Below are positions 9,155 to 23,719 of a stretch of DNA of 64,000 bases, piece by piece (position 1 is the stretch's first letter; each line of letters starts with the position of its first letter). The notes beneath the pieces are model-generated. The model saw nothing but the letters and a program-made list of their open reading frames with translations. It was not told the DNA's origin and did not search any database. The DNA comes from Protaetiibacter sp. (lineage in GTDB: Bacteria; Actinomycetota; Actinomycetes; Actinomycetales; Microbacteriaceae), in contig JASLGG010000051.1 of assembly GCA_030150265.1 (NCBI GenBank), forward strand, positions 51,798-115,797, read 5' to 3'. The translations under genes and the position numbers were made by a program.

Positions 9155-10717
9155 TCAGCTGCTCGCGCAGACCCCGCCGTTCAGGAAGAACAGCAGCGGC
9201 TCGCCCGAGCCCCCGCGGTCCGCCCCGATGAAGCCGATCGTGATCCGCTCGCCCGGCCGGATGACGCGGTTCCACGACAGGTTCGAGGCGAGCTGCCGCC
9301 CTCCCGCGGTCGTGTAGTCGGCGCTCCAGCCGTTCGCGACCGACTGACCCGCCGGGAACGTCCAGCGCAGCGTCCATCCGTCGATCGGCTTCGTGCCCGT
9401 GTTGGTGATCCACAGCTGCGTGTTGAACCCCCCGGGCCAGCTGCCGTTCACGATGTACTCCACCTTGCACGCGGGTCGCGTGACCGCCGGCTGCGCGAGC
9501 CGGATGAGCTCGGCAGCCTGCTCCGGGAACCACTGACCGGCCGGCGGGTCGACGATGCCGCGAGCCGGATCGGTGGGTCCGGCGGTGCCGCGGTAGCACT
9601 GACCGTCGGATTCACCGGGCACCTTGATCCACACGTAGGCGTCGACGATCGCGTCGCCAGTGTCGGCGGTCGGCGGCAGGCCGAGACCCGCGCCAGGCGG
9701 GTTGCACCAGGCCTCGGCATCCGGGTAGGCGCCCGCGGGCGGCGTCCACGGTCCCGTGCCGTTGCGGCTCGTGTCGATGATGACGTGCGGCTGGCGCGCG
9801 GGGTCGCGCACGAGGCCGGTGTCCGCGAACGCCTTGTCGAAGGCCGCGTCGCTCTGCGTCCAGGTCGAGAAGTCGTCCGGGTTGGCCGGGTAGTACTGGC
9901 TCGCGCACCACTCCCGCTGCCACCAGCTGTTCCGGTCGAGGTAGACGCAGTCCGAGATCCAGTGGCCGTACTTCACGAGCCGCTCGGTCTGGACGTAGTT
10001 GGACGCGTTGAGGTACAGGCCGTCCGCCTTCTCGACGCCCGCCTTGATGAGCCGGTCGGTCGCGTCTCCGACCCCCAGCCAGCCGCTGTGCGTTCCGTCG
10101 AGGTAGACCGCGGTGCGCGGAAGCGCGGTGAGCGCATCGACGGCGTAGTTCAGCTGGGCGAAGCGGTCGCTCGCCGCGGTCGCGGGGTCGGCCTCGGCCG
10201 GCTGGCACCAGTCCTGGGTCCCGTTGATGGTCGTGTACCAGGGGATGATGCCGAGCCCGTCGGGCTCGAGCACCACGACGGCGTCACGGGAGCCGATGCC
10301 GGCGACGGCTCCGTCGATCCACGCCTCATACGCGGCGGTGCTCGTGGCGCCACCCGCCGAGTACTGCGCGCAGTCCCGGAACGGCAGGTTGTAGAGCACG
10401 ATCACGGGCACCTCGCCGGCTGCGCTCGAGCCGTCGAGCAGGGCGCCGACCCCCGCCCGCACCTCGGCGGGGGTGCCCTTGGTGAACCAGGTGGCGGACG
10501 GGAAGGACGCGAGCAGCTGTGCGTCCGCGCGCGCCGGGCCGGTGAGAGCCGCGGCCGCGGCGGCGGTCGTGCTCGCGGGGTCGACGTAGAAGGTGGTGGT
10601 GGATCCGACGACGTCGTTCGCCGCAGGCGCGGCGAACGCGGGGAGGGTGGTGGTGAGCACAAGGGCTGCTGCGGCGATGGCCGCACCGGCCGCTCGTCTC
10701 GTCGTTGAGGCGTGCAT
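9155..10717 (-). CDS. Secreted GH6 cellulase with C-terminal CBM2
   Basis: Track ORF of 520 aa. Signal peptide 'AAALVLTTTLPAFAAPA'. GH6 motifs 'LPFRDCAQYSAGG', 'VVVLEPDGLG', 'IDTSRNG' and 'WIKVPGESDG'. C-terminal CBM2 'CKVEY..WPGGF..W..W'. Confidence 0.93.
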   Translation of the reverse strand: MHASTTRRAAGAAIAAAALVLTTTLPAFAAPAANDVVGSTTTFYVDPASTTAAAAAALTGPARADAQLLASFPSATWFTKGTPAEVRAGVGALLDGSSAAGEVPVIVLYNLPFRDCAQYSAGGATSTAAYEAWIDGAVAGIGSRDAVVVLEPDGLGIIPWYTTINGTQDWCQPAEADPATAASDRFAQLNYAVDALTALPRTAVYLDGTHSGWLGVGDATDRLIKAGVEKADGLYLNASNYVQTERLVKYGHWISDCVYLDRNSWWQREWCASQYYPANPDDFSTWTQSDAAFDKAFADTGLVRDPARQPHVIIDTSRNGTGPWTPPAGAYPDAEAWCNPPGAGLGLPPTADTGDAIVDAYVWIKVPGESDGQCYRGTAGPTDPARGIVDPPAGQWFPEQAAELIRLAQPAVTRPACKVEYIVNGSWPGGFNTQLWITNTGTKPIDGWTLRWTFPAGQSVANGWSADYTTAGGRQLASNLSWNRVIRPGERITIGFIGADRGGSGEPLLFFLNGGVCASS

Positions 10718-11766: not shown

Positions 11767-13098
11767 ATGATGGATGGGATGAGTCAGATGTTCCGCTCCT
11801 TCGCGACGCGGAACTACCGCATCTGGTTCGCGGGCGCGCTCGTCTCCAACGTCGGCACCTGGATGCAGCGGGTCGCCCAGGACTGGCTCGTGCTCGCCGA
11901 GCTCACGGACGACGACGCGGTCGCGGTGGGCGTCGTGATGGCCCTGCAGTTCGGCCCCCAGCTCGTGCTGCTGCCGGTCACCGGATGGGTCGCCGACCGC
12001 TTCGATCGACGGCACGTGCTCGCGGTGACGCAGGGCACGATGCTGCTGCTGGGACTCGGCCTCGGCCTCGTGACGCTCACGGGCGTCGTGCAGCTCTGGA
12101 TGGTGTTCGGCTTCGCGCTCGGCCTCGGCGTCGCCGCCGCGTTCGACGCGCCCGCCCGCCAGGCCTTCGTGGGCGAGCTCGTCGACGACGCCTCGCTCGC
12201 CAACGCGGTGGCCCTCAACGCCGCCTCGTTCAACGGCGCCCGGCTCATCGGCCCCGCCGTGGCCGGGATGCTCGTGGCGGTCGTCGGATCGGGGTGGGTG
12301 TTCCTGATCAACGCGGCGTCGTTCCTCGCCGTGCTCGTCTCGCTCGCGGCGCTGCGGCCGAAGGACTTCACACCCTTCACCCGCAAGGCCCGCGGGCGCG
12401 GCCAGATGCGCGCGGGCTTCCGCTACGTGCGGCGGCGCCCCGACATCCTGCTGGTGTTCGCGATGGTGTTCCTCACGGGAACCCTGGGCTACAACTTCCC
12501 GATCTACACGGCCACCATGGCGCGCGTCGAGTTCGGCGAGGGGCCCGAGGAGTTCGGATGGCTGTCGTCGGCGCTCGCCGTCGGCTCGGTCGCGGGGGCG
12601 CTGCTCGCCGCGCGCCGGGAGCGCCCCAGGCTGCGCACGGTGACGCTCGCGAGCCTCGGCTTCGGCCTCTCGCTCGGCGCCGCGGCGCTGGCGCCCGAGC
12701 CGATCAGCTTCGGCGCGGTGCTCGCGGTGGTCGGCTTCGCGGGCATCACGATGATGAACACCGCGAACGCCTACGTGCAGACCACGACGGCACCCTCGAT
12801 GCGCGGGCGGGTGCTCGCGCTCTACCTCGCGATCTTCATGGGCGGCACGCCGCTCGGCGCGCCGCTCATCGGCGCGATCGCGGATGCCGCGGGGCCGCGC
12901 TGGGCGATCGTCGTCGGCGCCGCATCCGGGCTCGCGGCCGCCGGGCTCGCCGGGGTGTTCTACCTGCGCACGCGCGGCGTGCGGGTCAGCTGGGAGCGCA
13001 GCCGGCGCTGGCCGCTGCGGATCTCGTCGGCGACGCCGGCCGACCGCGACACCGCCACGCAGGAGATCGCGATCGTCGAGGCCGGCACGCAGCGCTGA
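11767..13098 (+). CDS. MFS transporter (MFS_3 / EntS-like family)
   Basis: Track ORF of 443 aa. 'FRSFATRNYRIWFAGALVSNVGTWMQ' is the typical N-terminus of this family, with about 12 TM helices. The start could also be the ATG 21 nt downstream. Confidence 0.85.
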   Translation: MMDGMSQMFRSFATRNYRIWFAGALVSNVGTWMQRVAQDWLVLAELTDDDAVAVGVVMALQFGPQLVLLPVTGWVADRFDRRHVLAVTQGTMLLLGLGLGLVTLTGVVQLWMVFGFALGLGVAAAFDAPARQAFVGELVDDASLANAVALNAASFNGARLIGPAVAGMLVAVVGSGWVFLINAASFLAVLVSLAALRPKDFTPFTRKARGRGQMRAGFRYVRRRPDILLVFAMVFLTGTLGYNFPIYTATMARVEFGEGPEEFGWLSSALAVGSVAGALLAARRERPRLRTVTLASLGFGLSLGAAALAPEPISFGAVLAVVGFAGITMMNTANAYVQTTTAPSMRGRVLALYLAIFMGGTPLGAPLIGAIADAAGPRWAIVVGAASGLAAAGLAGVFYLRTRGVRVSWERSRRWPLRISSATPADRDTATQEIAIVEAGTQR

Positions 13099-13121
13099 CC
13101 TGCCCCGCCGCAGGGAAGGCG

Positions 13122-14231
13122 ATGCAGAATGGCAGCATGCCGGTCGTCGCCAAGGACACCCCGCTCGTCGCCCGCATCGGCGCCTCCGCCACCACCACGG
13201 AGTCCCGCGCGCTGGTCGTGGCCGTGGCGGCCTTCGTGCTCGCCTTCCTCGTGGCGCTCGTGGGGGTGCGCGGTCCCCTGCAGCTGTCGGGCGCCTGGTC
13301 GCTCGGCGCGTGGGCATCGGCCGTCGCGGCGGTCGCGGCGGCGGCGGCCTTCGTCGCCGGATACCTGCTGCCCGCACCGGGTGCGACCCGGCGCGACCGG
13401 CCCGAGCGGTCGACCTGGCGGCTCGTGCTCGACATCGTGGCCCTCGCGCTCGCCCACGGCTTCACGACGCTGCTGCTGCTCGAGGGCCTGTCGATCGTCG
13501 TGGCGCAGGCCTTCCTGGGTGCCGAGGTGTACTCCTTCAGCTCGATGACGCTCATCGCCGCCGCGGCGGCCCTCGCGGCCTACGTGTCGTTCCTCTCGGC
13601 ATCCGGCATGACCACCACCCGCGTGGCGACGGTGCTCGCGGTCTACCTCGTGGTGGGCGTCTTCGCGGCGATGCTGTCGACCTCCGACGCCGACTGGTGG
13701 GAGAAGAACATCTCGGCCCTCGGCATCGGCGACGACTTCTCGAGCTGGGTCTTCAACATCACCCTGATCGTCGCGGGCGCCATCATCACCGCGATCGCGA
13801 GCTACCTCGTGGTGGAGCTCGCGGCGAGCGGGATGGCGCGGGCGCGTGGCGAGCGCGACGACGGCCGCGAGCGCCTCCGCATCGAGGTGCTGCGCGGGGC
13901 GCTCCTCGCCCTCGGCACCTTCCTCGCCCTCGTCGGGGTGTTCCCCGTGAACTGGGTGGAATGGGTGCACAACACCTTCGCGACGGGCCTCGTGGTGATC
14001 TTCGCGGCGATGGTGTTCGGCGTGCGCCACGTCGTGCCGCGGATGCCCGTGGTGTTCGTCGCCGTCGGCTTCGTCTTCCTCGGCGTCGTGCTGTTCGCGA
14101 CCGTGCTGTTCGCGACCGGCGCCTACAACCTGACCGCGGTCGAGATCATCGGCTTCGCCCTCATCTTCACCTGGCTCATCGTGCTCATCCGCAACATCTC
14201 GGCGGGCGCGCACGACACCGGGCGCCCCTGA
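13122..14231 (+). CDS. Polytopic membrane protein (C-terminal half DUF998-like), unknown function
   Basis: ATG at 13122 behind GGGAAGG, in the frame of track ORF 11652..14231. About 9-10 hydrophobic helices and 'WWEKNISALGIGDDFSSWVFN'. The upstream part of the track ORF is a wrong-frame read of the MFS gene. Confidence 0.7.
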   Translation: MQNGSMPVVAKDTPLVARIGASATTTESRALVVAVAAFVLAFLVALVGVRGPLQLSGAWSLGAWASAVAAVAAAAAFVAGYLLPAPGATRRDRPERSTWRLVLDIVALALAHGFTTLLLLEGLSIVVAQAFLGAEVYSFSSMTLIAAAAALAAYVSFLSASGMTTTRVATVLAVYLVVGVFAAMLSTSDADWWEKNISALGIGDDFSSWVFNITLIVAGAIITAIASYLVVELAASGMARARGERDDGRERLRIEVLRGALLALGTFLALVGVFPVNWVEWVHNTFATGLVVIFAAMVFGVRHVVPRMPVVFVAVGFVFLGVVLFATVLFATGAYNLTAVEIIGFALIFTWLIVLIRNISAGAHDTGRP

Positions 14232-14337
14232 GCGTCAGGCGGCGTCGGCCGCGAAGGCGGCCCGCAACGAGAACCGGCCCGCGGAGGGGGGAATCTCAGC
14301 GGGCCGTCTCAAGGGTGCGTGGCACCCGAGGGGGTCT

Positions 14338-14371
14338 CCCGCGGCGGCGACCACCACAGCGCCGCCGCGGG
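14338..14371 (+). terminator. GC-rich hairpin (12-bp perfect stem), possible factor-independent terminator without a U-tract
   Basis: CCCGCGGCGGCG-ACCACCACAG-CGCCGCCGCGGG, about 105 nt after the stop at 14231. Confidence 0.3.
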
Positions 14372-14440
14372 ATGCTCCCATGCTAAGCAGAGAGGCTGGA
14401 TGCGAGCCGCGCGCATGCTGGGAACTCCGCATCCCGCCTC

Positions 14441-14459
14441 ACAGGTAAGGCTCACCTAA
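14441..14459. promoter_or_regulatory. DtxR/IdeR-type iron box upstream of hmuT
   Basis: ACAGGTAAGGCTCACCTAA matches the 19-bp consensus TTAGGTTAGGCTAACCTAA at 15/19 positions. Ends 21 nt before the GTG start at 14480. Confidence 0.6.
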
Positions 14460-14479
14460 GTTCCTTCTAGGATGGAGGG

Positions 14480-15577
14480 GTGACCCGAGCCCTTCGCGCC
14501 GCCACCGCGGCGGCCCTCTCCTGCGCTCTGCTCGCCGGATGCGCGATGCAGGCCCCCACGGGGTCCGCCACGACCGCCCATCCGGTCGACACGCGCCCGC
14601 TCTCGCAGCTCGAGCTCTACCCCGACCCCCGCGCGGTCGAGGGGCCGAGTACCGCGGTCATCGCGACCGACGCCGTCGAGCCGGTCGTCGATGCGCCCGC
14701 ACAGACCCTGCCCGCGAAGGTCGTCTCGCACGACCCCGGGGGCGACCGCGACGTCGTGGTCCGCGACACCTCCCGGGTGCTGGCCCTCGACCTGGCCGGA
14801 TCGCTCGCCGCGACCGTGTGGGGCCTCGGCCTCGGCAGCACCCTCGTGGGACGCGACATGTCGACCACCTTCCCCGGCACGGAGAAGCTGCCGGTGGTCA
14901 CCGCCGGCGCCCATGCGATCAACGCCGAGAGCGTCCTCGCGCTGCGCCCGACGCTCGTCGTCGCCGACGGCACCATCGGCCCGCGCGACGTGCTCGAGCA
15001 GCTGCGCGACTCCGGCGTCACCGTCGTCTTCGTCGCCAACGAGGCGAGCTTCGACGGCGCGGCGCAGCTCGCCCGCGACGTCGGCGCCGTGCTCGGGGTG
15101 CCGGAGGCCGGCGAGACGCTCGCGTCGAGCATCGCCGCCCAGGTGGACGACACCCTCGCGCAGATCGCGGCGATCGCACCCGCGGCATCCGGTGACAAGC
15201 TGCGCGTGATCTTCCTCTACCTGCGTGGCGGCTCGGGCATCTCCTACCTGTTCGGCAAGGAGTCGGGTGCCGACCGGCTCATCGCCGCCCTCGGCGCTCG
15301 CGACGTCGCGGGCGAGCTCGGCTGGGAGGGCATGCGACCCGTCACCGACGAGGCGCTCATCGACGCCGATCCGGATGTCGTGCTCGTCATGACCGACGGG
15401 CTCGCCTCCGCCGGGGGCGTCGACGGCCTGCTCTCCTCCAAGCCCGCGCTCGCCCTCACGACCGCCGGACAGCACCGCCGGATCGTCGACATGGCCGACG
15501 GCCAGATCCTGAGCTTCGGACCCCGCTCGGCACTCGTGCTGGACGCCCTCGCGCGCGCCCTCTACGCGAAGCCCTGA
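14480..15577 (+). CDS. hmuT: Heme/iron-chelate ABC substrate-binding lipoprotein (HmuT-like)
   Basis: Track ORF of 365 aa with a GTG start after GGAGGGG. Lipobox 'LLAGC'. Class III (helix-backbone) binding-protein layout: 'VLALDLAGSLAATVWGLGLGSTLVGRD' and 'LRPTLVVAD'. Confidence 0.8.
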   Translation: MTRALRAATAAALSCALLAGCAMQAPTGSATTAHPVDTRPLSQLELYPDPRAVEGPSTAVIATDAVEPVVDAPAQTLPAKVVSHDPGGDRDVVVRDTSRVLALDLAGSLAATVWGLGLGSTLVGRDMSTTFPGTEKLPVVTAGAHAINAESVLALRPTLVVADGTIGPRDVLEQLRDSGVTVVFVANEASFDGAAQLARDVGAVLGVPEAGETLASSIAAQVDDTLAQIAAIAPAASGDKLRVIFLYLRGGSGISYLFGKESGADRLIAALGARDVAGELGWEGMRPVTDEALIDADPDVVLVMTDGLASAGGVDGLLSSKPALALTTAGQHRRIVDMADGQILSFGPRSALVLDALARALYAKP

Positions 15578-15651
15578 CCCCGCACCGACGGGTCGTCCTC
15601 CCCGCCCCGCGGCCACCGGTTAGGCTCTCGCTCAGAGCGGGGGATGATCGC

Positions 15652-16710
15652 ATGACCACAGAGTCTCGCCGGGTGCTCGTCGTGGATGACGACCCCGACG
15701 TCGCGCTGTTCGTGAAGACGATGCTCGAGCGCCGAGGTGGATGCGTCGTGCAGCTGGCCGCCGACGGGATCGCCGCAATCGCCGCAATCGCCGCCTTCCG
15801 GCCCGACGTCGTGGTGACCGACATCCAGATGCCGGGGCTCTCCGGACTCGAGCTGCTCGCCGCGATCCGCGAGGACGCCGCCTGGATGCCGGTGGTCGTC
15901 ATGACGGCGCACGTGTCCGTGGACTACGCCGTCTCGGCCCTGCGCGCGCAGGCCGACGAGTTCCTCACCAAGCCGCTCGACAGCACGCGCCTGGTGGAGG
16001 TCGTCACCCGCCTCGCCGACGAGGGCCGTGCCCGCCGCGAGGCCGTGACGCCGAAGGAGTTCGTGCTCGCCGTGGGAGCGCATCCCGATGACGTCGAGAT
16101 CGGAGTGGGGGGCGTGCTCGCCGCCCACCGCGAGGCCGGCGATGAGATCACGATCCTCACGCTCTCACGCGGGGCGCGCGGCGGCGACGCCGACGACCGC
16201 CAGCACGAGTCGCTCGCGGCCGCCGAGCTGCTCGGCGCCCGGCTGTTCCTCAAGGACCTCGTCGACACCGAGATCCCGGGCGGCGGCCCGACCGTGCGGC
16301 TCATCGAGGAGGTCGTGCGGGAGGTCGTGCCCACGATCGTCTACACGCACAGCCAGCACGACCGGCACCAGGACCACCGCGCCGTGCACGAGGCCACCAT
16401 CGTCGCGACGCGCACCATCGACACGGTGGCCTGCTACCAGAGCCCCTCGGCGACGGTCGACTTCCGTCCGACGCGCTTCGTGTCGATCGACGGCTTCGTC
16501 GAGCGCAAGCTCGCCCTGCTGGCCTGCTTCCGCTCGCAGGCCGAGAACCGCTCCTACCTCGTGCCGGACTTCGTGGTGGCGACCGCGCGCTACTGGTCGC
16601 GCTTCGGCGGCGGCGAGAACGTCGAGCCGCTCGAGGTCGTGCGCGAGACCTCCGACCTCTCGGTTCCGGCGCGGACGCGGCAGGGCGAGCGCAGCAGGGA
16701 GGCACGATGA
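15652..16710 (+). CDS. Response-regulator receiver fused to a PIG-L/LmbE-family N-acetylglucosaminyl deacetylase
   Basis: Track ORF of 352 aa. REC motifs: 'VLVVDDDPD', 'VVVTDIQMPGLSGLEL', 'VVMTAH', 'FLTKP'. PIG-L motifs: 'VLAVGAHPDDVEIGVGG' and 'HQDHRAVH'. No signal peptide or TM helix. Confidence 0.9.
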   Translation: MTTESRRVLVVDDDPDVALFVKTMLERRGGCVVQLAADGIAAIAAIAAFRPDVVVTDIQMPGLSGLELLAAIREDAAWMPVVVMTAHVSVDYAVSALRAQADEFLTKPLDSTRLVEVVTRLADEGRARREAVTPKEFVLAVGAHPDDVEIGVGGVLAAHREAGDEITILTLSRGARGGDADDRQHESLAAAELLGARLFLKDLVDTEIPGGGPTVRLIEEVVREVVPTIVYTHSQHDRHQDHRAVHEATIVATRTIDTVACYQSPSATVDFRPTRFVSIDGFVERKLALLACFRSQAENRSYLVPDFVVATARYWSRFGGGENVEPLEVVRETSDLSVPARTRQGERSREAR

Positions 16711-17693
16711 CTCGGGTGCTCATCACGGGCGTCGGCGGGGCGGCCGGCGTCGCCGTCGTCCGCTCGTTGCTCGCGCGCCACGACCTCACCGTCTTCGCAG
16801 CCGACATGGACGGCTGGGCGGCGGGCCTCTACCTCGTGCCGCCCGAGCAGCGCCGGCTCGTCGAGCCGGGCCGCGACCCCGGCTTCGTGCCCGGGCTGGC
16901 CGCGCTCGTCGAGCGCGACCGGATCGACGTGGTGATCTCCACGGTCGACGTCGAGCTGACCGCGCTCGCCGAGCGTCGCCACGAGCTCGCCCCCGCCGTG
17001 CTCGCCGCGCCGAGCGCGGCGACCCTCGCCGTGGCGCTCGACAAGCTCGCCCTCGCGGAGCGCTGCGCCCCCACCGCGCAGGTGCCGCGCACCGTGCTCG
17101 CCGGACCCGCGGCGCTCGAGGTCGAGTGGGAGTTCCCGGTGTTCGCGAAGCCGCGCAGCGGTGCGGGCAGCCGCGGCATCCGGATGGTGCCCGACCGCGC
17201 CGCGCTCGCCGCGCTCCCCGCCGATGAGGGGCTCATCGTGCAGGATCTGCTGCCCGGCGAGGAGTACTCGGTCGACGTCATCGCGGACGCCGAGGGGAAG
17301 GTCGTGGCGGCGGTGCCGCGCACCCGCACCCGCGTCGACTCCGGGGTGTCGATCGCCGGGCGCACCGTGCGCGACCCGGAGCTCGAGGAGACGGCCGCCG
17401 CCGTGGCCCGGGCCATCGGGCTCGTCGGCGTCGCGAACGTGCAGCTGCGGCGCGACCGCGCCGGACGCGCCGCCCTGCTCGAGGTCAACCCTCGGTTCCC
17501 GGGGGCGCTGCCGCTCACGATCGCCGCGGGCGTCGACATCCCCTCGCTCGTCGTCGACCTGTTCACGGGCCGCCCGCTGCCCGAGCGGCTCGGGTTCCGC
17601 GAGGTCGCCTCCGTGCGCTTCCTCGAGGACATCGTGCTCGACCCCGCCGAGGTGCTCGAGTCGGCGCATGCCGCCCACCAGGACGGCGACTGA
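16707..17693 (+). CDS. ATP-grasp domain ligase
   Basis: Track ORF of 328 aa with an ATGA overlap onto the previous stop. Rossmann-like N-terminus 'VLITGVGGAAG', then 'FPVFAKPRSGAGSRGI', 'IVQDLLPGEEYSVDV' and 'NVQLR...LLEVNPRFPG'. Confidence 0.85.
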   Translation: MTRVLITGVGGAAGVAVVRSLLARHDLTVFAADMDGWAAGLYLVPPEQRRLVEPGRDPGFVPGLAALVERDRIDVVISTVDVELTALAERRHELAPAVLAAPSAATLAVALDKLALAERCAPTAQVPRTVLAGPAALEVEWEFPVFAKPRSGAGSRGIRMVPDRAALAALPADEGLIVQDLLPGEEYSVDVIADAEGKVVAAVPRTRTRVDSGVSIAGRTVRDPELEETAAAVARAIGLVGVANVQLRRDRAGRAALLEVNPRFPGALPLTIAAGVDIPSLVVDLFTGRPLPERLGFREVASVRFLEDIVLDPAEVLESAHAAHQDGD

Positions 17694-17694
17694 C

Positions 17695-18414
17695 GTGCAC
17701 ACGGAACTGCGCGGCGACCACCACGTGCACTCGACCTTCTCGGACGACGCCGTCTCGACCCTCGCCGAGAACGTCGCCGCGGCCCATTCCGCAGGCCTGT
17801 CGGAGCTGCGTCTCGTCGACCACGTGCGCGCGAGCACGAGCTGGGTGCCGGAGTTCGTGTCGGCGGTCGCCGCCCTCGAGGTGCCCGAGGGGCTCACGGT
17901 GCACACCGGGGTCGAGACGAAGCTGCTCGACGCGACGGGCGCGCTCGACCTGCCGTCCGGGCTCGACGGCGTCGACCGCATCCTCATCGCCGACCACCAG
18001 TTCCCCGGGCCCGACGGCCCCTGGACGCCCACCGCGACCGTCGAGCGGCTGCGCGCGGGGCTCGCGGTCGACGACGCGCTCGACCTCCTCCTGGAGGGGC
18101 TGCTCGGCGCGATGCGCCGGCATCCGGGCAATCAGCTCGCGCACTGCTTCTCGATCCTGCCGAAGGTGGGGCTCGAGGAGGAGCTGCTCGGCGCGGAGCG
18201 CATCGCGGCCTGGGCGCAGACCGCTGCGGCGAGCGACACGCTCGTCGAGGTCAACGAGAAATGGGGATGCCCGGGGCCGGCAGCGCTCGCCGCGGCGCGT
18301 GCCGCCGGGGTGCGGCTCGTCGCCTCCACCGACAGCCATCGGGCATCCGACGTCGGCCGCTACGAGCGGGTCGCCGCACTGCTCGACGAGGCCGAGCGGA
18401 GGGGGGCCGCCTGA
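17695..18414 (+). CDS. PHP-domain metal-dependent phosphoesterase (HisJ/CpsB-like size and motifs)
   Basis: GTG at 17695, 1 nt after the previous stop, in the frame of track ORF 17161..18414 (239 aa). PHP metal ligands 'GDHHVHSTFSDD', 'LVDH', 'TGVE', 'IADH' and 'STDSH'. Confidence 0.8.
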   Translation: MHTELRGDHHVHSTFSDDAVSTLAENVAAAHSAGLSELRLVDHVRASTSWVPEFVSAVAALEVPEGLTVHTGVETKLLDATGALDLPSGLDGVDRILIADHQFPGPDGPWTPTATVERLRAGLAVDDALDLLLEGLLGAMRRHPGNQLAHCFSILPKVGLEEELLGAERIAAWAQTAAASDTLVEVNEKWGCPGPAALAAARAAGVRLVASTDSHRASDVGRYERVAALLDEAERRGAA

Positions 18415-19907
18415 TGGATGTGCCGCAGATCCTCATCGACGTGCTCGTGATCGTGCTGCTCGTGTTCGTGGCCACGGGCGCGGTTCCCGTGATCACGGCG
18501 GCCGTGCACTTCGTGATCGTGCCGCTGCACGCCTTCATCAACCACTACGGCAAGGCGGCCCCCTACACGCCGCGGGTCGCCGTCATGGTCCCGGCCTGGA
18601 ACGAGGGTGCGGTCGTCGGCCCGACCATCGAGAGGCTGCTCGAGCTCGACTACCCCTCCGAGAACCTGCGCGTCTACGTGATCGACGACGCCTCCACCGA
18701 CGACACCCCGGACGTCGTCGCGCGCAAGGCCGTCGAGCACCCGGGGCGGGTGTTCCTGCTCCGGCGAGAGCAGGGCGGCCAGGGCAAGGCGCACACGCTC
18801 AACCACGGCATCCGGGTCGTGCTCGGCGAGGACTGGGCCGAGGCGCTTCTGATCATGGACGCCGACGTGATCTTCACCCCGAGCTCGCTGCGCCGCATGT
18901 CGCAGCATCTCGCCGACCCCGAGGTGGGCGCGGTCTCGGCCTACATCGCGGAGGGCAGCCGCGACCCCAACTACATGACGCGGTTCATCGCGATCGAGTA
19001 CGTGCTCGCCCAGCTCGCCTCCCGCCGCGCCCAGAACGTGCTCGGCGCCCACGCCTGCCTCGCGGGGGGCGCCCAGCTGCACTCGCGCGCCAACCTGGAG
19101 GCCATCGGCGGGCAGATCCCCACCAGCACCCTCGCCGAGGACACCGTCGCGACCTTCGAGTCGCAGCTGCACGGGCGCCGCATGGTGTTCGAGCCGCACG
19201 CGGTCGTGCTCGCCGAGGAGCCCGGCACGATCGAGGGACTGTGGAAGCAGCGGCTGCGCTGGGCGCGCGGCAACGTGCAGGTCTCGGCGATGTACCGCAA
19301 GGTGTGGTTCCGCTGGGGCCATGGCCTCCACCACCTCGGCAACATCGCGTTCGGGGCGTCGTGGTTCAGCATCTTCCTGCTGCCGTTCACGATGATCCTG
19401 TCGTCGATCGGGCTCGTCGGGTTGTTCTTCCTGCACAGCGATCTCGCCGAGACGGTGTTCCGTGCTCTGTGGATCACGGCCGCGCTCACCTACGTCTTCT
19501 CGATGACGCTCGGCGTGCAGCTCGACGGCAGGGTGGGACGGATGTCGTGGCGGGAGGCGCTGCTGTTCCCCGGCGCCGTGTCGTTCCTCGTGATGATCGC
19601 CGCCCTGTTCCCCGGGCTCCTCGAGGAGCGGCTGCCGCGGATGCTGGGGCTCGAGCTGCTGCCCGTCGGGCACGCCGCGCTGACCCTCGGCATCTACGTG
19701 TGGATCTCCGCGGCGATGGCCGGCGCATGGCTCGCCCGCGCCGTCGAGGCGACGCGCGTCGGACGCGTGCTGTCGCCGCTGCTCGTCTACCTGGTCGGCT
19801 ACGGGCCGATGCTGTGCGCCATCACGGTCGACTCCTACGTCAAGGAGTGGCGCAAGGCCGACGCGAGCTGGATCAAGACCGAGAAGACCGGGAGAGTGCT
19901 GGCATGA
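18414..19907 (+). CDS. Membrane-embedded processive family-2 glycosyltransferase (PgaC/NodC/cellulose-synthase-like)
   Basis: ATG at 18414 overlaps the previous TGA by 1 nt, in the frame of track ORF 18261..19907 (497 aa). One N-terminal TM pair, then 'VMVPAWNEG', 'VIDDASTDDT', 'IMDADVIF', 'LAEDT' and 'QRLRWARG' (QxxRW), followed by 4-5 C-terminal TM helices. Confidence 0.9.
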   Translation: MDVPQILIDVLVIVLLVFVATGAVPVITAAVHFVIVPLHAFINHYGKAAPYTPRVAVMVPAWNEGAVVGPTIERLLELDYPSENLRVYVIDDASTDDTPDVVARKAVEHPGRVFLLRREQGGQGKAHTLNHGIRVVLGEDWAEALLIMDADVIFTPSSLRRMSQHLADPEVGAVSAYIAEGSRDPNYMTRFIAIEYVLAQLASRRAQNVLGAHACLAGGAQLHSRANLEAIGGQIPTSTLAEDTVATFESQLHGRRMVFEPHAVVLAEEPGTIEGLWKQRLRWARGNVQVSAMYRKVWFRWGHGLHHLGNIAFGASWFSIFLLPFTMILSSIGLVGLFFLHSDLAETVFRALWITAALTYVFSMTLGVQLDGRVGRMSWREALLFPGAVSFLVMIAALFPGLLEERLPRMLGLELLPVGHAALTLGIYVWISAAMAGAWLARAVEATRVGRVLSPLLVYLVGYGPMLCAITVDSYVKEWRKADASWIKTEKTGRVLA

Positions 19908-20053
19908 CCGAATCGACGCGGATGGGGCGCGCCGCCGCGCACCACGAGCTGCGTCGCGATGCGCGACGCGAGTACCTGCTCCTGGTCCAAGGGGCTCTCG
20001 GGTTGATCGTCATCGCGGCGATCGTCTGGGTGCGGCAGGCGTTCTTCGCATGA
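19904..20053 (+). CDS. 49-aa single-pass membrane microprotein coupled to the GT2 synthase
   Basis: In the frame of track ORF 18299..20053. ATGA overlaps at both ends (19904-19907 and 20050-20053). Charged N-terminus plus TM helix 'LLLVQGALGLIVIAAIVWV'. Without it, this would be the only 142-nt gap in an otherwise gapless operon. Confidence 0.6.
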   Translation: MTESTRMGRAAAHHELRRDARREYLLLVQGALGLIVIAAIVWVRQAFFA

Positions 20054-20403
20054 GCGAGGGGATGCTCGCGCTCGTGGTCGACGACAGCGACGACCAGTCC
20101 GAGCTGCTGCGCCGCTACCTGGAGCGCGAGGGCTGCCGCGTGGTGGCGGCGTCGACGGCGGAGCAGGCGCTGACCCTGCTGGACGGCATCCGTCCCGACC
20201 TCGCGATCGTCGACCTGCTGCTGCCCGGGATCTCAGGGGCGGAGCTGGCCGGGCGGGTGCGGATGACGCATCCGGACTGCCTGCTGGCCATCAGCTCGGT
20301 GCTCGACGCCGCCAGCTACCCGGAGGCCGACGCCGTGCTGCCGAAGCCGTTCACGGGCGCGCAGCTGGCGGCTGTCGTCGAGCAGGCTGCGCGACGCGGA
20401 TGA
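20050..20403 (+). CDS. Stand-alone response-regulator receiver (no output domain)
   Basis: Track ORF of 117 aa. 'LALVVDDSDD', 'LAIVDLLLPGISG' and 'VLPKPF'. Confidence 0.85.
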   Translation: MSEGMLALVVDDSDDQSELLRRYLEREGCRVVAASTAEQALTLLDGIRPDLAIVDLLLPGISGAELAGRVRMTHPDCLLAISSVLDAASYPEADAVLPKPFTGAQLAAVVEQAARRG

Positions 20404-22142
20404 CGCTGCCGCGCGCACGCGTGCTGTGGGCGCGCTGGTACGCGATCGCCGACGACCCGAACCCCATCGTCAAGCAGGCCCCCACGGCGATCGCGGTGGC
20501 GGTCGCGCTCGTGCTGACGGGGCTGGTCCCCGACCTGCCCTTCGGGCGGCCCGTCGCGGGCTGGTCCGGCGTGGCCGTCATCGCCGCGGCGACCGCCCTC
20601 GCGGCCGTGCTCACCCGGCGGAGGGTCTTCGAGGGGTTCGTGGTCACGATCGTGCCGATCGCCGACATCGTCGGTCTCGGCCTGTTCCGCGCCGGGACGG
20701 GAGGCGCGTCGTCGGTCTTCGGCATCCTCATCCTGCTGCCGATCGTCTGGATCGCCTCTCTCCCGAAGCTGCGCCACGTGGCGATCGTGGCGGTGCTCAC
20801 GACCCTCGTGATCGCCCTGCCCTACGTGACCGATCCGCCGGAGAGCTGGGCGGCCTGGCTGCGGGTGGTCATCGTCCCGGTCACCTACACGATCATGGCC
20901 GCGATCGTGAACGAGCTCTCGCGCATCGCCCGGGTGCGCACCGAGGAGGCGGAACGCCTCGCAGCCGACCAGGTGCTCGCCCTCGAGGAGAGGCTGCGCG
21001 TGATGACGCAGCTGCAGGAGGGCGAGGAGCGCTACCGCGAGCTGCTCGAGCTGTTCCGCAGCGTCTGGAACGCGACGACGGCACAGGCGGTGATCGGCAC
21101 CGATCGCACCGGGCTCGTGGTCGCCTGGAACCCCGGCGCCACCGTGCTGCTCGGCACCGAGGACATCGACGCGGAGTTCACCGCCCGGATCGAGCGCTTC
21201 TTCACGCCCGAGGCGCTCGCCTCGCTCGAGGCGGAGTCGGGTGCGATGCCCGCCCACGACGCGATGGATCCCGCGCTGCGCTCGCTCTTCGGGATCGTCG
21301 ACCGGGGCGAGACCGCCGTGCGCGAGCTCGAGATGCGACGGGAGGACGGCAGCGCCGTGCCCGTGCGCCTCACCGTGACGCCGCGCCGCGACGGCACCGG
21401 CGAGCAGGTGGGCTACCTGCTCGTCGCGACCGACGAGACCCGCGCCATCGAGGTCGCGCGCATGAAGGACGAGTTCGTCGGCATGATCTCGCATGAGCTG
21501 CGCACGCCGCTCAGCTCGATCCTCGGCTACCTCGAGCTGCTGCGCGACGATCCGGTGCATCCGCTCAACGAGGAGCAGCTGCAGTTCCTCGAGATCGCCG
21601 AGCGGAACGCGCGACGGCTGCTGCGGCTCGTGGGCGACCTGCTGTTCACCGCGCAGGTGGAGTCGGGCCAGTTCCCTCTCGAGTCGCGCGAGGTCGACCT
21701 CGGTGCGATCGTGCGGGCAGCCGCCGAGACGGCGCGGCCCGCCGCCACGGCGGCCGGGGTCGCGCTCGTGGAGGAGATCCCGGATGCCGAGGTGCGGCTC
21801 GAGCTGGACGCCGTGCGCATCGGCCAGGCGGTCGACAACCTCGTCTCGAACGCGCTCAAGTTCACGCCCGCCGGCGGGCGCGTGGAGCTCTCTCTCGTCG
21901 CCGACGCGGAGAACGCCACGATCGGCGTGCGCGACACCGGGCTCGGCATCCCGCCCGACGAGCTCGACCGCCTCTTCACGCGCTTCTTCCGTGCCAGCAC
22001 GGCCACCCGCAACGCGGTGCCGGGCGTCGGGCTCGGGCTCAACATCACCAAGGCGATCGTGACGGCGCACGGCGGCCGCATGGAGGTGGAGAGCGAGGAG
22101 GGGGCCGGGACGATGTTCCGGATCGTGCTCCCGCGGCGCTGA
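20400..22142 (+). CDS. Sensor histidine kinase: polytopic membrane domain, coiled coil, PAS, HisKA, HATPase_c
   Basis: Track ORF of 580 aa with an ATGA overlap. About 5-6 TM helices in the first 170 aa. H-box 'SHELRTPLSS', N-box 'NLVSNALKFTP', G1 'VRDTGLGIP', G2 'GVGLGL'. Confidence 0.9.
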   Translation: MTLPRARVLWARWYAIADDPNPIVKQAPTAIAVAVALVLTGLVPDLPFGRPVAGWSGVAVIAAATALAAVLTRRRVFEGFVVTIVPIADIVGLGLFRAGTGGASSVFGILILLPIVWIASLPKLRHVAIVAVLTTLVIALPYVTDPPESWAAWLRVVIVPVTYTIMAAIVNELSRIARVRTEEAERLAADQVLALEERLRVMTQLQEGEERYRELLELFRSVWNATTAQAVIGTDRTGLVVAWNPGATVLLGTEDIDAEFTARIERFFTPEALASLEAESGAMPAHDAMDPALRSLFGIVDRGETAVRELEMRREDGSAVPVRLTVTPRRDGTGEQVGYLLVATDETRAIEVARMKDEFVGMISHELRTPLSSILGYLELLRDDPVHPLNEEQLQFLEIAERNARRLLRLVGDLLFTAQVESGQFPLESREVDLGAIVRAAAETARPAATAAGVALVEEIPDAEVRLELDAVRIGQAVDNLVSNALKFTPAGGRVELSLVADAENATIGVRDTGLGIPPDELDRLFTRFFRASTATRNAVPGVGLGLNITKAIVTAHGGRMEVESEEGAGTMFRIVLPRR

Positions 22143-22167
22143 GACCGTACCCCTCGCCCGGTCCCCG

Positions 22168-23070
22168 TCAGTCGGTGGGGGGTGCGGGCGGCGTGCCGAG
22201 GGCGTCGAGGGCGGACCAGAACTCGACGTCGACGGTCTCGTGCACGCGGCGCTCGAGCTCCGCGAGGCGCTCGGTCGAGTTGATGCCGACGACCGTCGTG
22301 TGGATGCGGGGCTCGCGCAGCGAGAAGTGGAGGGCCGCGGTCGCGGGCTCGATGCGCCACTCCTCGCACAGCGCCCGGAACCGGTCGACGTGGGCCAGGA
22401 ACTCGGGGCTCGGCTCGGAGTAGCCGTAGGTGCGGCCGCGGAAGTTGCCGCCCGCCAGGATGCCCGCGCCGAACGGCGCCGCGTTGAACACCGTCATCCC
22501 GCGCTCCGTCGCGAGCCGGATGATCTCCTCGGCCGAGCGATCGACCACCGTGTAGCGGTTGTGCGTCAGCACCACGTCGAAGACGTCGGTGCGCACGTAC
22601 TCCTCCACGAGCTGCCGGGTGCCGGCGGCGATACCGATCGCACCGATCCGCCCCTCCTCACGCAGCCGGATGAGAGCCTCGACGGCGCCGCCCCGACCCA
22701 TCGCGGATGCGACGTCGACCGTGTAGGGGTCGTGCAGCTGGTAGAGCGGCAGGGTGTCGAGGCCGAGGCGCTCGGTCGACTCCTCGAAGGAGCGCAGCAT
22801 CCGCTCGCCGTCGAAGACGCCCGTCACCGGGTCCTGGTCGCCCTTGGAGAACACCGAGCGGTCGTCGGGCAGGCCGCCGATCGCGCGGATGGCCTCGCCG
22901 ATCAGCCGCTCGCTCTCGCCCTCCGCATAGATGTTCGAGGTGTCGATCTGCCGGAACGGCGAGCGCAGCATCGCCGCGGCGAGCGCGACATCCGCGCCCG
23001 GGCGCTTGCCGAGGCCGGAGGTTCCGATGGTGACCTGCTGAAGCGACGTCGCATCCCACATGGCATCCAT
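22168..23070 (-). CDS. Aldo/keto reductase
   Basis: Track ORF of 300 aa. 'IDTSNIYAEGESERLIGEAI', 'LYQLHDP' and 'HNRYTVVDR'. Confidence 0.85.
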   Translation of the reverse strand: MDAMWDATSLQQVTIGTSGLGKRPGADVALAAAMLRSPFRQIDTSNIYAEGESERLIGEAIRAIGGLPDDRSVFSKGDQDPVTGVFDGERMLRSFEESTERLGLDTLPLYQLHDPYTVDVASAMGRGGAVEALIRLREEGRIGAIGIAAGTRQLVEEYVRTDVFDVVLTHNRYTVVDRSAEEIIRLATERGMTVFNAAPFGAGILAGGNFRGRTYGYSEPSPEFLAHVDRFRALCEEWRIEPATAALHFSLREPRIHTTVVGINSTERLAELERRVHETVDVEFWSALDALGTPPAPPTD

Positions 23071-23107
23071 GCTGCCACTCGCCGGCCGGCGCGCTATGAC
23101 GTGAGCG

Positions 23108-23719
23108 TCACGACGTGAGCGTCGACTCGGCGGCCTGCCAGGCCTCCGCGATGAGCTCGGCCCCGAGCGCCGTCGGGTGCACGCCGTCCTCGGCGACCGC
23201 CGCCGCGCCGTGATGCACGGCCGCGACCGTCAGGATGCGATGCAGCGGCACGAGGGCGGCCTGGAACTCGGACGCGAGCGAGGCGACCGCCTCGCGCTTG
23301 CCCGCGAGATCGTCGAGCCACGCGCGCTGCTCCTCGACGACGGGCACGAGGAACGGCTCGACGAGGATGAGCCGCGGGTTCGAGGCCGCGCGGGCCTCCT
23401 CGAGGAGGGCCCGGTAGACGCCCTCGAAGTGCGCCGGATCGGTCGCGTCGCCGCCGTCGAAGCGGCGCCAGGTGTCGTTGACGCCGACGTAGACCGTGAG
23501 CACGCTCGGCTCCTGCGCGAGCACGTCGGCGGCCCAGCGGTTCCGCAGGTCTCCGATCCGGTCGCCGCCGATGCCGCGGTTCACGATCCGGCGACGCTCC
23601 CCGCGCAGCGCGAACGCCTCGGCGACGAGGCGCACGTAGCCCCAGCCGAGGCCGGCGGGGTCGTCACGGCGGCCGGCGTCGGTGATCGAGTCGCCGACGA
23701 AGAGCACGGGTCCGGTCAT
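23108..23719 (-). CDS. SGNH/GDSL-family hydrolase
   Basis: Track ORF of 203 aa. Block I 'FVGDSIT', block II 'NRGIGG', block III 'GVND', block V 'DGVHP'. Confidence 0.85.
   Translation of the reverse strand: MTGPVLFVGDSITDAGRRDDPAGLGWGYVRLVAEAFALRGERRRIVNRGIGGDRIGDLRNRWAADVLAQEPSVLTVYVGVNDTWRRFDGGDATDPAHFEGVYRALLEEARAASNPRLILVEPFLVPVVEEQRAWLDDLAGKREAVASLASEFQAALVPLHRILTVAAVHHGAAAVAEDGVHPTALGAELIAEAWQAAESTLTS

Follow-up and report, generated by a model that had tools for sequence, protein, structure and literature searches.

What would a bacterium make with a block of seven chained genes that sets a receiver-fused sugar deacetylase, an ATP-grasp enzyme and a phosphoesterase beside a membrane glycosyltransferase and ends in a sensor histidine kinase, and how would its production be controlled? 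Such a block occupies positions 15652-22142 of a 64,000-nucleotide stretch of the chromosome of Protaetiibacter sp., referred to here as the window. Our preferred reading, to which we give about an even chance, is that the block is a synthase-dependent system for a secreted glycan, with a cytoplasmic branch that remodels a precursor and with two-component control acting after translation. The seven genes, numbered g1 to g7, are as follows.

15652..16710, plus strand: g1, a receiver (residues 8-118) fused to a PIG-L/LmbE-type zinc de-N-acetylase (residues ~137-340)
16707..17693, plus strand: g2, an ATP-grasp enzyme of the carboxylate-amine ligase or carboxylase type
17695..18414, plus strand: g3, a PHP-family metal-dependent phosphoesterase of the YcdX/HisJ type (alternative start ATG 17668)
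18414..19907, plus strand: g4, a predicted membrane-integrated processive GT2 synthase of 497 aa
19904..20053, plus strand: g5, a 49-aa single-pass membrane peptide with a charged N-terminus predicted to lie inside
20050..20403, plus strand: g6, a stand-alone receiver with no output domain
20400..22142, plus strand: g7, a sensor histidine kinase with ~7 transmembrane segments (by hydropathy), PAS, HisKA (H-box HELRTP) and HATPase domains

All seven open reading frames (ORFs) lie on the plus strand between 15652 and 22142, and each has a clean translation in the ORF listing. Read directly from the sequence, ATGA junctions stand at 16707, 19904, 20050 and 20400, and g3 and g4 overlap by 1 nt (cTGATG, 18412-18416). 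The junction of g2 with g3 is TGA-c-GTG (17691-17697), leaving a 1-nt gap if g3 starts at the GTG at 17695; the in-frame ATG at 17668, chosen by another gene caller (248 aa), would give a 26-nt overlap with g2. We place the start of g4 at 18414 because a 497-aa database protein is 100% identical, and the upstream extension of this ORF, from 18261, is an Arg-rich out-of-frame overlap. The initial annotation of this DNA, made from the sequence alone, had described seven same-strand chained genes, assigned domains to them and noted that none encodes a DNA-binding domain. The ORF listing and the sequence read bear out the layout and the junctions, and a Pfam scan of the seven products supports each domain assignment, g5 alone having no Pfam or NCBIfam match, and finds no DNA-binding domain in any of them. 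The catalytic residues of the GT2, PIG-L, both receiver (REC), PHP and kinase domains are intact.

To place the block among its relatives, one genome per species was scanned, which gave 80 loci, and these were searched by tblastn with the seven window proteins. The order g1-g2-g3-g4 is collinear in about 45 of them, from Microbacteriaceae, Cellulomonas, Blastococcus, Streptosporangiaceae, one Streptomyces, Serinicoccus and Frankiaceae to Conexibacter/Solirubrobacterales, Thermoleophilia and Acidimicrobiia; it is rearranged in Vicinamibacteria and Polyangiaceae. Across Microbacteriaceae the module is 65-90% identical, and the junctions across loci are mostly -4 and -1 overlaps. Because both the order and the overlap-type junctions recur in dozens of species, the cluster is beyond chance. 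Co-occurrence was counted in the 42 species-level loci in which a full-length gene for the receiver-deacetylase fusion (REC::PIG-L) is flanked by 6 kb or more on each side. ATP-grasp accompanies the fusion in 40 of the 42 and is its most tightly linked partner, followed by PHP (37/42) and GT2 (36/42); all three are present in 34/42, in loci that span Actinomycetota, Vicinamibacteria and Myxococcota. The alphaproteobacterial and gammaproteobacterial loci have no PHP gene. All-vs-all clustering of the ORFs of the 80 loci brought out no recurrent partner beyond the module except a histidine kinase.

What is conserved amounts to five genes (REC::PIG-L, ATP-grasp, phosphatase, GT2 and single-pass peptide) with a variable kinase, and not to seven, because the kinase and the extra receiver stand downstream only in Micrococcales, while elsewhere the kinase is upstream or none is adjacent. 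Thus the five-gene core is conserved across phyla, but the full set of seven is confined to Micrococcales.

The synthase, its proposed membrane partner and probable export

In the g4 product, one N-terminal transmembrane helix is followed by a GT-A domain bearing the D, DxD, TED and QxxRW motifs and then by about five C-terminal transmembrane helices. It matches PF13641 in Pfam (1.4e-32), and its motifs DDASTD, DAD (149-151), LAEDT (240-244) and KQRLRW (278-283) are invariant in 43 orthologues, the last in the form KQRxRW. In a Foldseek search with its AlphaFold2 (AF2) model (pLDDT 83.5, pTM 0.82), the matches included PcManGT, a minimal cellulose-synthase-like enzyme (9e-15), BcsA (~1e-12), the hyaluronan synthases (HAS) of Chlorella virus and Xenopus (~3e-12) and chitin synthases (~1e-9), with the BcsA and HAS matches spanning about 500 aligned columns (TMq 0.5-0.58). 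Residues 486-493 form an invariant C-terminal cytoplasmic tail, W-x-K-T-x-K-x-G, the first part of which (W-x-K-T-x-K) is presumably similar to the gating-loop motifs, FxVTxK/WGTR, that occur in cellulose and hyaluronan synthases. The model and the motifs point to a processive membrane synthase of the BcsA/HAS type with all catalytic motifs, for which polymer synthesis and translocation are predicted.

The curated family models bear on a simpler account, namely that this is a plain poly-beta-1,6-N-acetylglucosamine (PNAG; pga/ica) or cellulose operon with regulators nearby. The best NCBIfam match of g4 is PgaC_IcaA (TIGR03937), its homologues are annotated in databases as 'cellulose synthase/poly-beta-1,6-N-acetylglucosamine synthase-like', and a small transmembrane gene follows the synthase as it does in icaAD and pgaCD. 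However, PgaC_IcaA scores 127.3 bits on g4 against a cut-off of 422.3, the second-best model, NodC (TIGR04242; 3.6e-22), 78.9 bits against 550, and the CelA model 74 bits against 699. Since motifs and fold are present and these curated cut-offs are missed, g4 is of the processive-synthase type and belongs to no named family. Moreover, a CE4 deacetylase (PgaB/IcaB), IcaC, PilZ or a cyclic di-GMP (c-di-GMP) module is neither present in the window nor recurrent in the related loci, and PNAG and cellulose systems do not carry the PIG-L, ATP-grasp and PHP set. We therefore regard a plain PNAG or cellulose operon as very improbable.

The 49-aa peptide encoded by g5 has counterparts far from the window: a small single-pass ORF overlaps the GT2 stop codon (ATGA or GTGA) in about 35 loci from several phyla, including Proteobacteria and Vicinamibacteria. 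These peptides share the pattern E-x3-D-x-R-x-E-[RK]-x-L, followed by a transmembrane helix and then R, and another pipeline also calls g5 as a gene. Judged by this recurring sequence pattern, g5 is a real, conserved gene, and its translation is coupled to that of g4. By analogy, we propose that it is a partner subunit of the synthase, in the position held elsewhere by PgaD/IcaD or the transmembrane anchor of BcsB. We also considered g5 as a graspetide, or another ribosomally synthesised and post-translationally modified peptide precursor, for the ATP-grasp enzyme, and rejected this: the transmembrane helix is conserved, the gene always follows GT2 and not ATP-grasp, and core repeats of Thr/Ser/Lys with Asp/Glu are lacking.

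Versions of the module in two-membrane (diderm) bacteria bring further proteins with them. In five loci (L042, L045, L053, L057 and L068), GT2 and the peptide are followed by a protein of ~440 aa that carries a signal peptide and about five TPRs; its C-terminal half is rich in beta structure and mostly ends in F or W. Its sequence suggests an architecture of the PgaA/BcsC/PelB type with a putative outer-membrane barrel. In a Polyangiaceae locus, a single run on the minus strand (L050:12480-16577) encodes a PHP orthologue, a 441-aa TPR protein and a 711-aa BcsB-like protein (PF03170, 1e-15), and adjoins the GT2, ATP-grasp and REC::PIG-L genes. The presence of TPR/outer-membrane and BcsB-like proteins in the diderm versions speaks for a polymer that crosses the envelope, as far as these sequence assignments hold.

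Accessory enzymes and the nature of the product

Both halves of g1 are supported by Pfam, the receiver by PF00072 (1.5e-30, 106 bits) and the deacetylase by PF02585 (5.9e-24, 85.5 bits against a gathering score of 28.2). The receiver has D12/D13, D57, T85 and K107 in place, and D57 and K107-P are kept in 60 orthologues; the PIG-L motifs GAHPDDVEIG and D.HQDHR are likewise conserved in 60 orthologues, with AHPDD and HxDH invariant. The segments AHPDDVE and HDRHQDH align to TT1542, BC1534 and BshB, which are the closest PDB relatives of the domain, and diacetylchitobiose deacetylases are also matched. The fusion has more than 3,300 close homologues, with 70-88% identity within Microbacteriaceae, and 373 representatives at 50% clustering (E<=1e-30), mostly aligned end to end; in Occultella the deacetylase has no recognisable receiver. 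With catalytic and phospho-acceptor residues intact, g1 is a predicted deacetylase. As g1, g2 and g3 have no convincing transmembrane segment, all three products are taken to be cytoplasmic.

The g2 product matches PF15632 (5e-31) and PF02655, both above their cut-offs. Its AF2 model (pLDDT 92.5) is closest in Foldseek to 2pn1, an uncharacterised structural-genomics protein (1.7e-21, TM 0.78), and the next structural neighbours, at similar E-values, are the bicarbonate-activating enzymes biotin carboxylase, PurK and CPS, and the L-amino-acid ligases RizA, YwfE and PylC.

For g3, Pfam gives PF02811 (5e-8, 33.9 bits against a cut-off of 26.4), the best PDB match is YcdX (1m65, 8e-5), and the metal-ligand positions D8, H10, H12, H43, E74, D100-H101, H149, D213 and H215 are kept in 32 orthologues. 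Two alphaproteobacterial loci without PHP have a His_Phos_1 gene (PF00300) directly after ATP-grasp (L057:12005-12616, 5e-21; L059:4223-4855, 2e-23), which, from its family and position, looks like a non-orthologous replacement. A His_Phos_1 protein standing in the place of PHP indicates that the role of g3 is that of a phosphatase working with ATP-grasp. Alternatively, the phosphatase, whether PHP or His_Phos_1, could act on phosphoproteins and reset the two-component signal by dephosphorylating the receiver or the kinase, with the rest of our model unchanged. The system is centred on signalling, and both superfamilies hold phosphoprotein phosphatases, CpsB/YwqE among the PHP proteins and SixA among those of His_Phos_1. 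Yet g3 matches only the generic PHP model and no CpsB-type family, its named relatives being of the YcdX and HisJ type, and the His_Phos_1 proteins are nearer to CobC (1e-12 to 1e-14) than to SixA, a weak match at 3e-5. The phosphatase is also kept where no kinase is adjacent (L043, L061, L064) and always stands beside ATP-grasp, and we therefore doubt the resetting role.

Taken together, these genes would fit the following scheme. On the membrane, g4 and g5 would use a UDP-sugar to build a polymer of a beta-linked hexosamine-type sugar and would extrude it, and in two-membrane bacteria the TPR/outer-membrane-barrel protein would carry it across the outer membrane. The sugar would be N-acetylglucosamine (GlcNAc). 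On the cytoplasmic side, the PIG-L enzyme would strip the N-acetyl group from a GlcNAc-bearing precursor, which could be the nucleotide-sugar donor, a primer or a terminal residue. ATP-grasp would then form a new amide from the freed amine, or from a carboxylate, probably with a phosphorylated acid or amino-acid partner; in the first case the amine would be re-N-acylated. The phosphatase would take off the remaining phosphate.

The strongest rival to this scheme is a pathway of the mycothiol/bacillithiol type, in which the product would be a small glucosamine (GlcN)-based conjugate and not a polymer. Here, the glycosyltransferase would add GlcNAc to a phosphorylated acceptor, the phosphatase and the PIG-L enzyme would remove phosphate and N-acetyl, and an ATP-dependent ligase would add an amino acid to the amine, so that the four activities correspond one for one to MshA, MshA2, MshB and MshC. 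The best NCBIfam match of the PIG-L domain is indeed BshB1 (TIGR04001, 1.7e-23), BshB is among its best PDB matches, PIG-L and ATP-grasp are the tightest pair in the co-occurrence counts, the substituting His_Phos_1 proteins are of the metabolic CobC-like type, and some Leifsonia loci, described below, hold the three soluble enzymes without GT2. Set against this, the BshB1 score is 83.6 bits where the cut-off is 182.5, and the glycosyltransferase is not a soluble GT4 but a polytopic GT2 with QxxRW, a channel architecture like that of BcsA and HAS and a conserved single-pass partner. The TPR/outer-membrane and BcsB-like proteins of the diderm loci would be needless for a cytoplasmic redox buffer. 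On balance we consider a thiol-like conjugate unlikely.

Next in strength comes an oligosaccharide like a Nod factor, a secreted signal for which GT2 would make short chito-oligosaccharides, PIG-L would de-N-acetylate the non-reducing end and ATP-grasp would re-N-acylate it. The succession of GT2, cytoplasmic deacetylase and re-N-acylation follows the logic of NodC, NodB and NodA, NodC is the second-best NCBIfam model for g4, and the diacetylchitobiose deacetylases among the PDB matches belong to the PIG-L family. Such a product would also solve the problem of how a cytoplasmic enzyme gains access to its substrate, because oligomers can be released cytoplasmically. But the NodC score lies far below its cut-off, the deacetylase and the acylating enzyme fall outside the families of NodB (CE4) and NodA, and the 80 loci show no recurrent ABC exporter like NodIJ. 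The C-terminal helices of g4 outnumber those of NodC, and its alignment to channel-forming synthases spans the full length of the protein; a TPR/outer-membrane partner is typical of polymer export. A Nod-like signal thus appears decidedly unlikely.

Returning to the synthase-dependent glycan, several points weigh against it. Known processive synthases move the growing chain through the membrane during synthesis, so a cytoplasmic deacetylase should not reach the polymer. Remodelling would have to act on the donor, a primer or the terminal residue, each of them a conjecture, and we know of no PIG-L enzyme that acts on a nucleotide sugar. For g2, the nearest fold relatives in Foldseek include bicarbonate-activating carboxylases beside amide ligases and do not separate ligase from carboxylase. 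A PDB profile search with the TPR proteins returned TPR matches only, the putative barrel being read from sequence pattern. Finally, the enzymes can persist without a neighbouring synthase. Three Leifsonia loci (L009:10001-15203, L014 and L017) keep g1-g3, the receiver and the kinase, with no GT2 or peptide in the locus, and two loci from metagenome-assembled genomes of Microbacteriaceae (L032:6982-11134 and L025:4925-9360) consist of a REC::PIG-L paralogue, a receiver and one or more kinases only. This paralogue is 53% identical and has a CN_hydrolase upstream; ATP-grasp, PHP and GT2 are absent, and L032 has several kinases in a row.

A more specific form of the synthase-dependent reading can also be put forward, though we hold it only tentatively. 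The block would represent a new class among synthase-dependent exopolysaccharide systems, found in several phyla, in which a kinase that phosphorylates the receiver-fused deacetylase takes the place of c-di-GMP and directly governs the chemistry or the output of the polymer, GlcN is re-N-acylated with an amino or hydroxy acid by ATP-grasp and the phosphatase, and the peptide is an obligatory subunit of the synthase.

Probable two-component control

The last two genes of the block would supply the signalling. The kinase g7 matches HATPase_c (1.3e-28), HisKA (1e-21) and PAS_9 (1.9e-6). The receiver g6 matches PF00072 (1e-15, 58 bits) with the DD, D, S/T and K positions visible in its translation; its domain content suggests that it may also accept phosphate from the kinase, beside g1, and so act as a sink, a competitor or an adaptor. 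A receiver of this type stands beside the kinase in Micrococcales loci only. The initial annotation had spoken of a phosphorelay, a term that we drop: the Pfam scan found no HPt domain among the seven window products, and we therefore describe a two-component system with two receivers and not a His-Asp-His-Asp phosphorelay.

A receiver fused to an enzyme domain leads us to expect that phosphorylation acts on catalysis and not on DNA binding, and we think it probable that the sensor kinase acts on the enzymes themselves and not through gene expression. In mechanistic terms, g7 would phosphorylate D57 of the g1 receiver and so switch the deacetylase on or off, enzyme activity being gated by phosphorylation. 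An envelope or redox signal could thereby set the amount or the kind of polymer with no transcription factor, and in Micrococcales the extra receiver g6 would compete for the phosphoryl group or drain it.

Of the related loci, 46 have a kinase gene next to the module, on its downstream side in Micrococcales and on its upstream side in other lineages, and some loci have none adjacent. The kinases are of different kinds. Three loci (L027, L040 and L065) have soluble multi-PAS kinases beside the module, and a Vicinamibacteria locus (L045) has a GAF/HPt hybrid kinase, the only HPt-containing hybrid seen. Because the adjacent kinases differ between lineages, the receiver on the deacetylase is best described, from these gene neighbourhoods, as an input port and the enzyme module as a portable output. 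In Marinicella (Gammaproteobacteria), L042:9-2224 lies on the minus strand, divergent from the module at L042:2420-7283, and encodes an H-NOX haem-NO sensor (PF07700, 1e-31) and a hybrid histidine kinase-receiver, which suggests that in this lineage the glycan system is under nitric-oxide control. In an Ilumatobacteraceae locus (L065:6878-9591), a multi-PAS kinase and an OmpR-type DNA-binding response regulator lie immediately upstream of REC::PIG-L, and one kinase may there feed both a transcriptional and an enzymatic receiver.

Genomic context and comparison with known systems

Three further features of the window lie close to the block.

15578..15651, plus strand: upstream intergenic region of 74 nt, the sole non-coding gap adjoining the block
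14480-15577: Peripla_BP_2 binding protein, the gene directly upstream, unrelated to the block
9155-10717, minus strand: secreted GH6 cellulase whose C-terminus bears a cellulose-binding domain (CBM2), upstream of the cluster by ~5 kb

Being the only such gap, the 74-nt region is presumed to hold the promoter and 5' untranslated region, and a Shine-Dalgarno-like run, GGGGGA, precedes the ATG of g1. A scan of 14000-23500 gave no sigma-70-like promoter, no intrinsic terminator and no Rfam match, riboswitches included. With no Rfam element or terminator in this range, a c-di-GMP riboswitch or an attenuator in the leader is unsupported. Farther upstream of the block are an MFS transporter and the GH6-CBM2 cellulase; clustering of ORFs in the related loci showed that the GH6 cellulase is not recurrent beside the module. 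Downstream, on the opposite strand, the neighbours are an aldo-keto reductase and a GDSL lipase, and more distant ones are PutA, ClpB and DnaK. GC content is ~0.72 and flat. A mobile island was considered and ruled out, given this flat composition and the housekeeping or metabolic neighbours, and the block is a chromosomal operon bounded by 15652-22142.

Separately, the ~1.4 kb between the MFS and binding-protein genes (13100-14480) contains long ORFs on both strands, 12884-14386 on the plus and 12960-14213 on the minus strand. These have no Pfam match, and none passes the GC3 filter.

Biofilms and cell envelopes depend centrally on synthase-dependent polysaccharides, among them cellulose, PNAG, alginate, Pel and hyaluronan, and most bacterial examples are, to our knowledge, switched by c-di-GMP. 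If our view of control is true, the block would send His-Asp phosphotransfer straight onto a biosynthetic enzyme, which is a different control logic, and its accessory enzymes imply an uncharacterised amino-sugar modification. The module recurs in Cellulomonas, Streptosporangiales, Thermoleophilia, Acidimicrobiia, Vicinamibacteria, Myxococcota and Proteobacteria and is present in cultured strains, among them Microbacterium oxydans BEL4b, Leucobacter komagatae, Cellulomonas persica NBRC 101101, Conexibacter stalactiti and Comamonas sp. JUb58, so that a result in one cultured carrier would annotate hundreds of genomes. Such a result could also account for a trait of the envelope or of biofilms in actinobacteria that are common in soil and with plants.

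The view taken at first, that no characterised system has this composition, agrees with our searches: none of the seven products reaches the cut-off of a curated NCBIfam equivalog, and no paper on this gene combination was found in the searchable full-text literature. An Actinoplanes exopolysaccharide paper and a lipocone paper were examined as possible descriptions of the block and proved unrelated. Comparison with known systems is therefore made part by part.

The nearest relatives in layout are PgaABCD of E. coli and IcaADBC of staphylococci, in which a QxxRW membrane GT2 is likewise followed by a small membrane partner and partial de-N-acetylation belongs to the pathway; in diderm bacteria, Pga and the present module both come with a TPR plus outer-membrane barrel protein, putative in our case. 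They differ in that the Pga/Ica deacetylase is an extracytoplasmic CE4 enzyme, whereas that of the block is a cytoplasmic PIG-L fused to a receiver. The block adds ATP-grasp and PHP, and its proposed control is by His-Asp phosphotransfer instead of c-di-GMP. Although g5 stands in the partner position, it has no detectable homology to PgaD/IcaD and has one transmembrane helix rather than two.

With BcsA-BcsB-BcsC and HAS, the block shares the full-length alignment of the g4 model, the D, DxD, TED and QxxRW motifs and, in the Polyangiaceae locus, the BcsB-like and TPR genes. Unlike the Bcs systems, it has no PilZ and no BcsB in the window, g4 is much smaller at 497 aa, and the accessory enzymes point to an amino sugar and not to glucose.

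The chemistry that we propose follows the order of NodABC, with a GlcNAc-chain GT2, cytoplasmic removal of N-acetyl and re-acylation of the amine. The enzymes differ, NodB being a CE4 protein and NodA an acyl-ACP transferase where the block has PIG-L and ATP-grasp; there is no NodIJ exporter, and g4 falls short of the NodC model. The Msh (A/A2/B/C) and Bsh (A/B/C) pathways have the same set of activities, and the PIG-L of the block is BshB-like. In contrast to them, the block has a polytopic GT2 in place of a soluble GT4, an ATP-grasp ligase in place of a CysRS-like enzyme or BshC, membrane and export parts, and a receiver fused to the deacetylase.

Finally, the fusion itself joins g1 to the response regulators with enzymatic output, such as the methylesterase CheB, the diguanylate cyclases PleD and WspR, and RpfG, all of which have an N-terminal receiver followed by an enzyme. 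What sets g1 apart from these is its output, a PIG-L/LmbE sugar de-N-acetylase, and we found no description of PIG-L as a receiver output domain in the searchable literature. The comparison as a whole suggests a system of the synthase-dependent glycan type with a new accessory set and, as we infer, direct two-component control.

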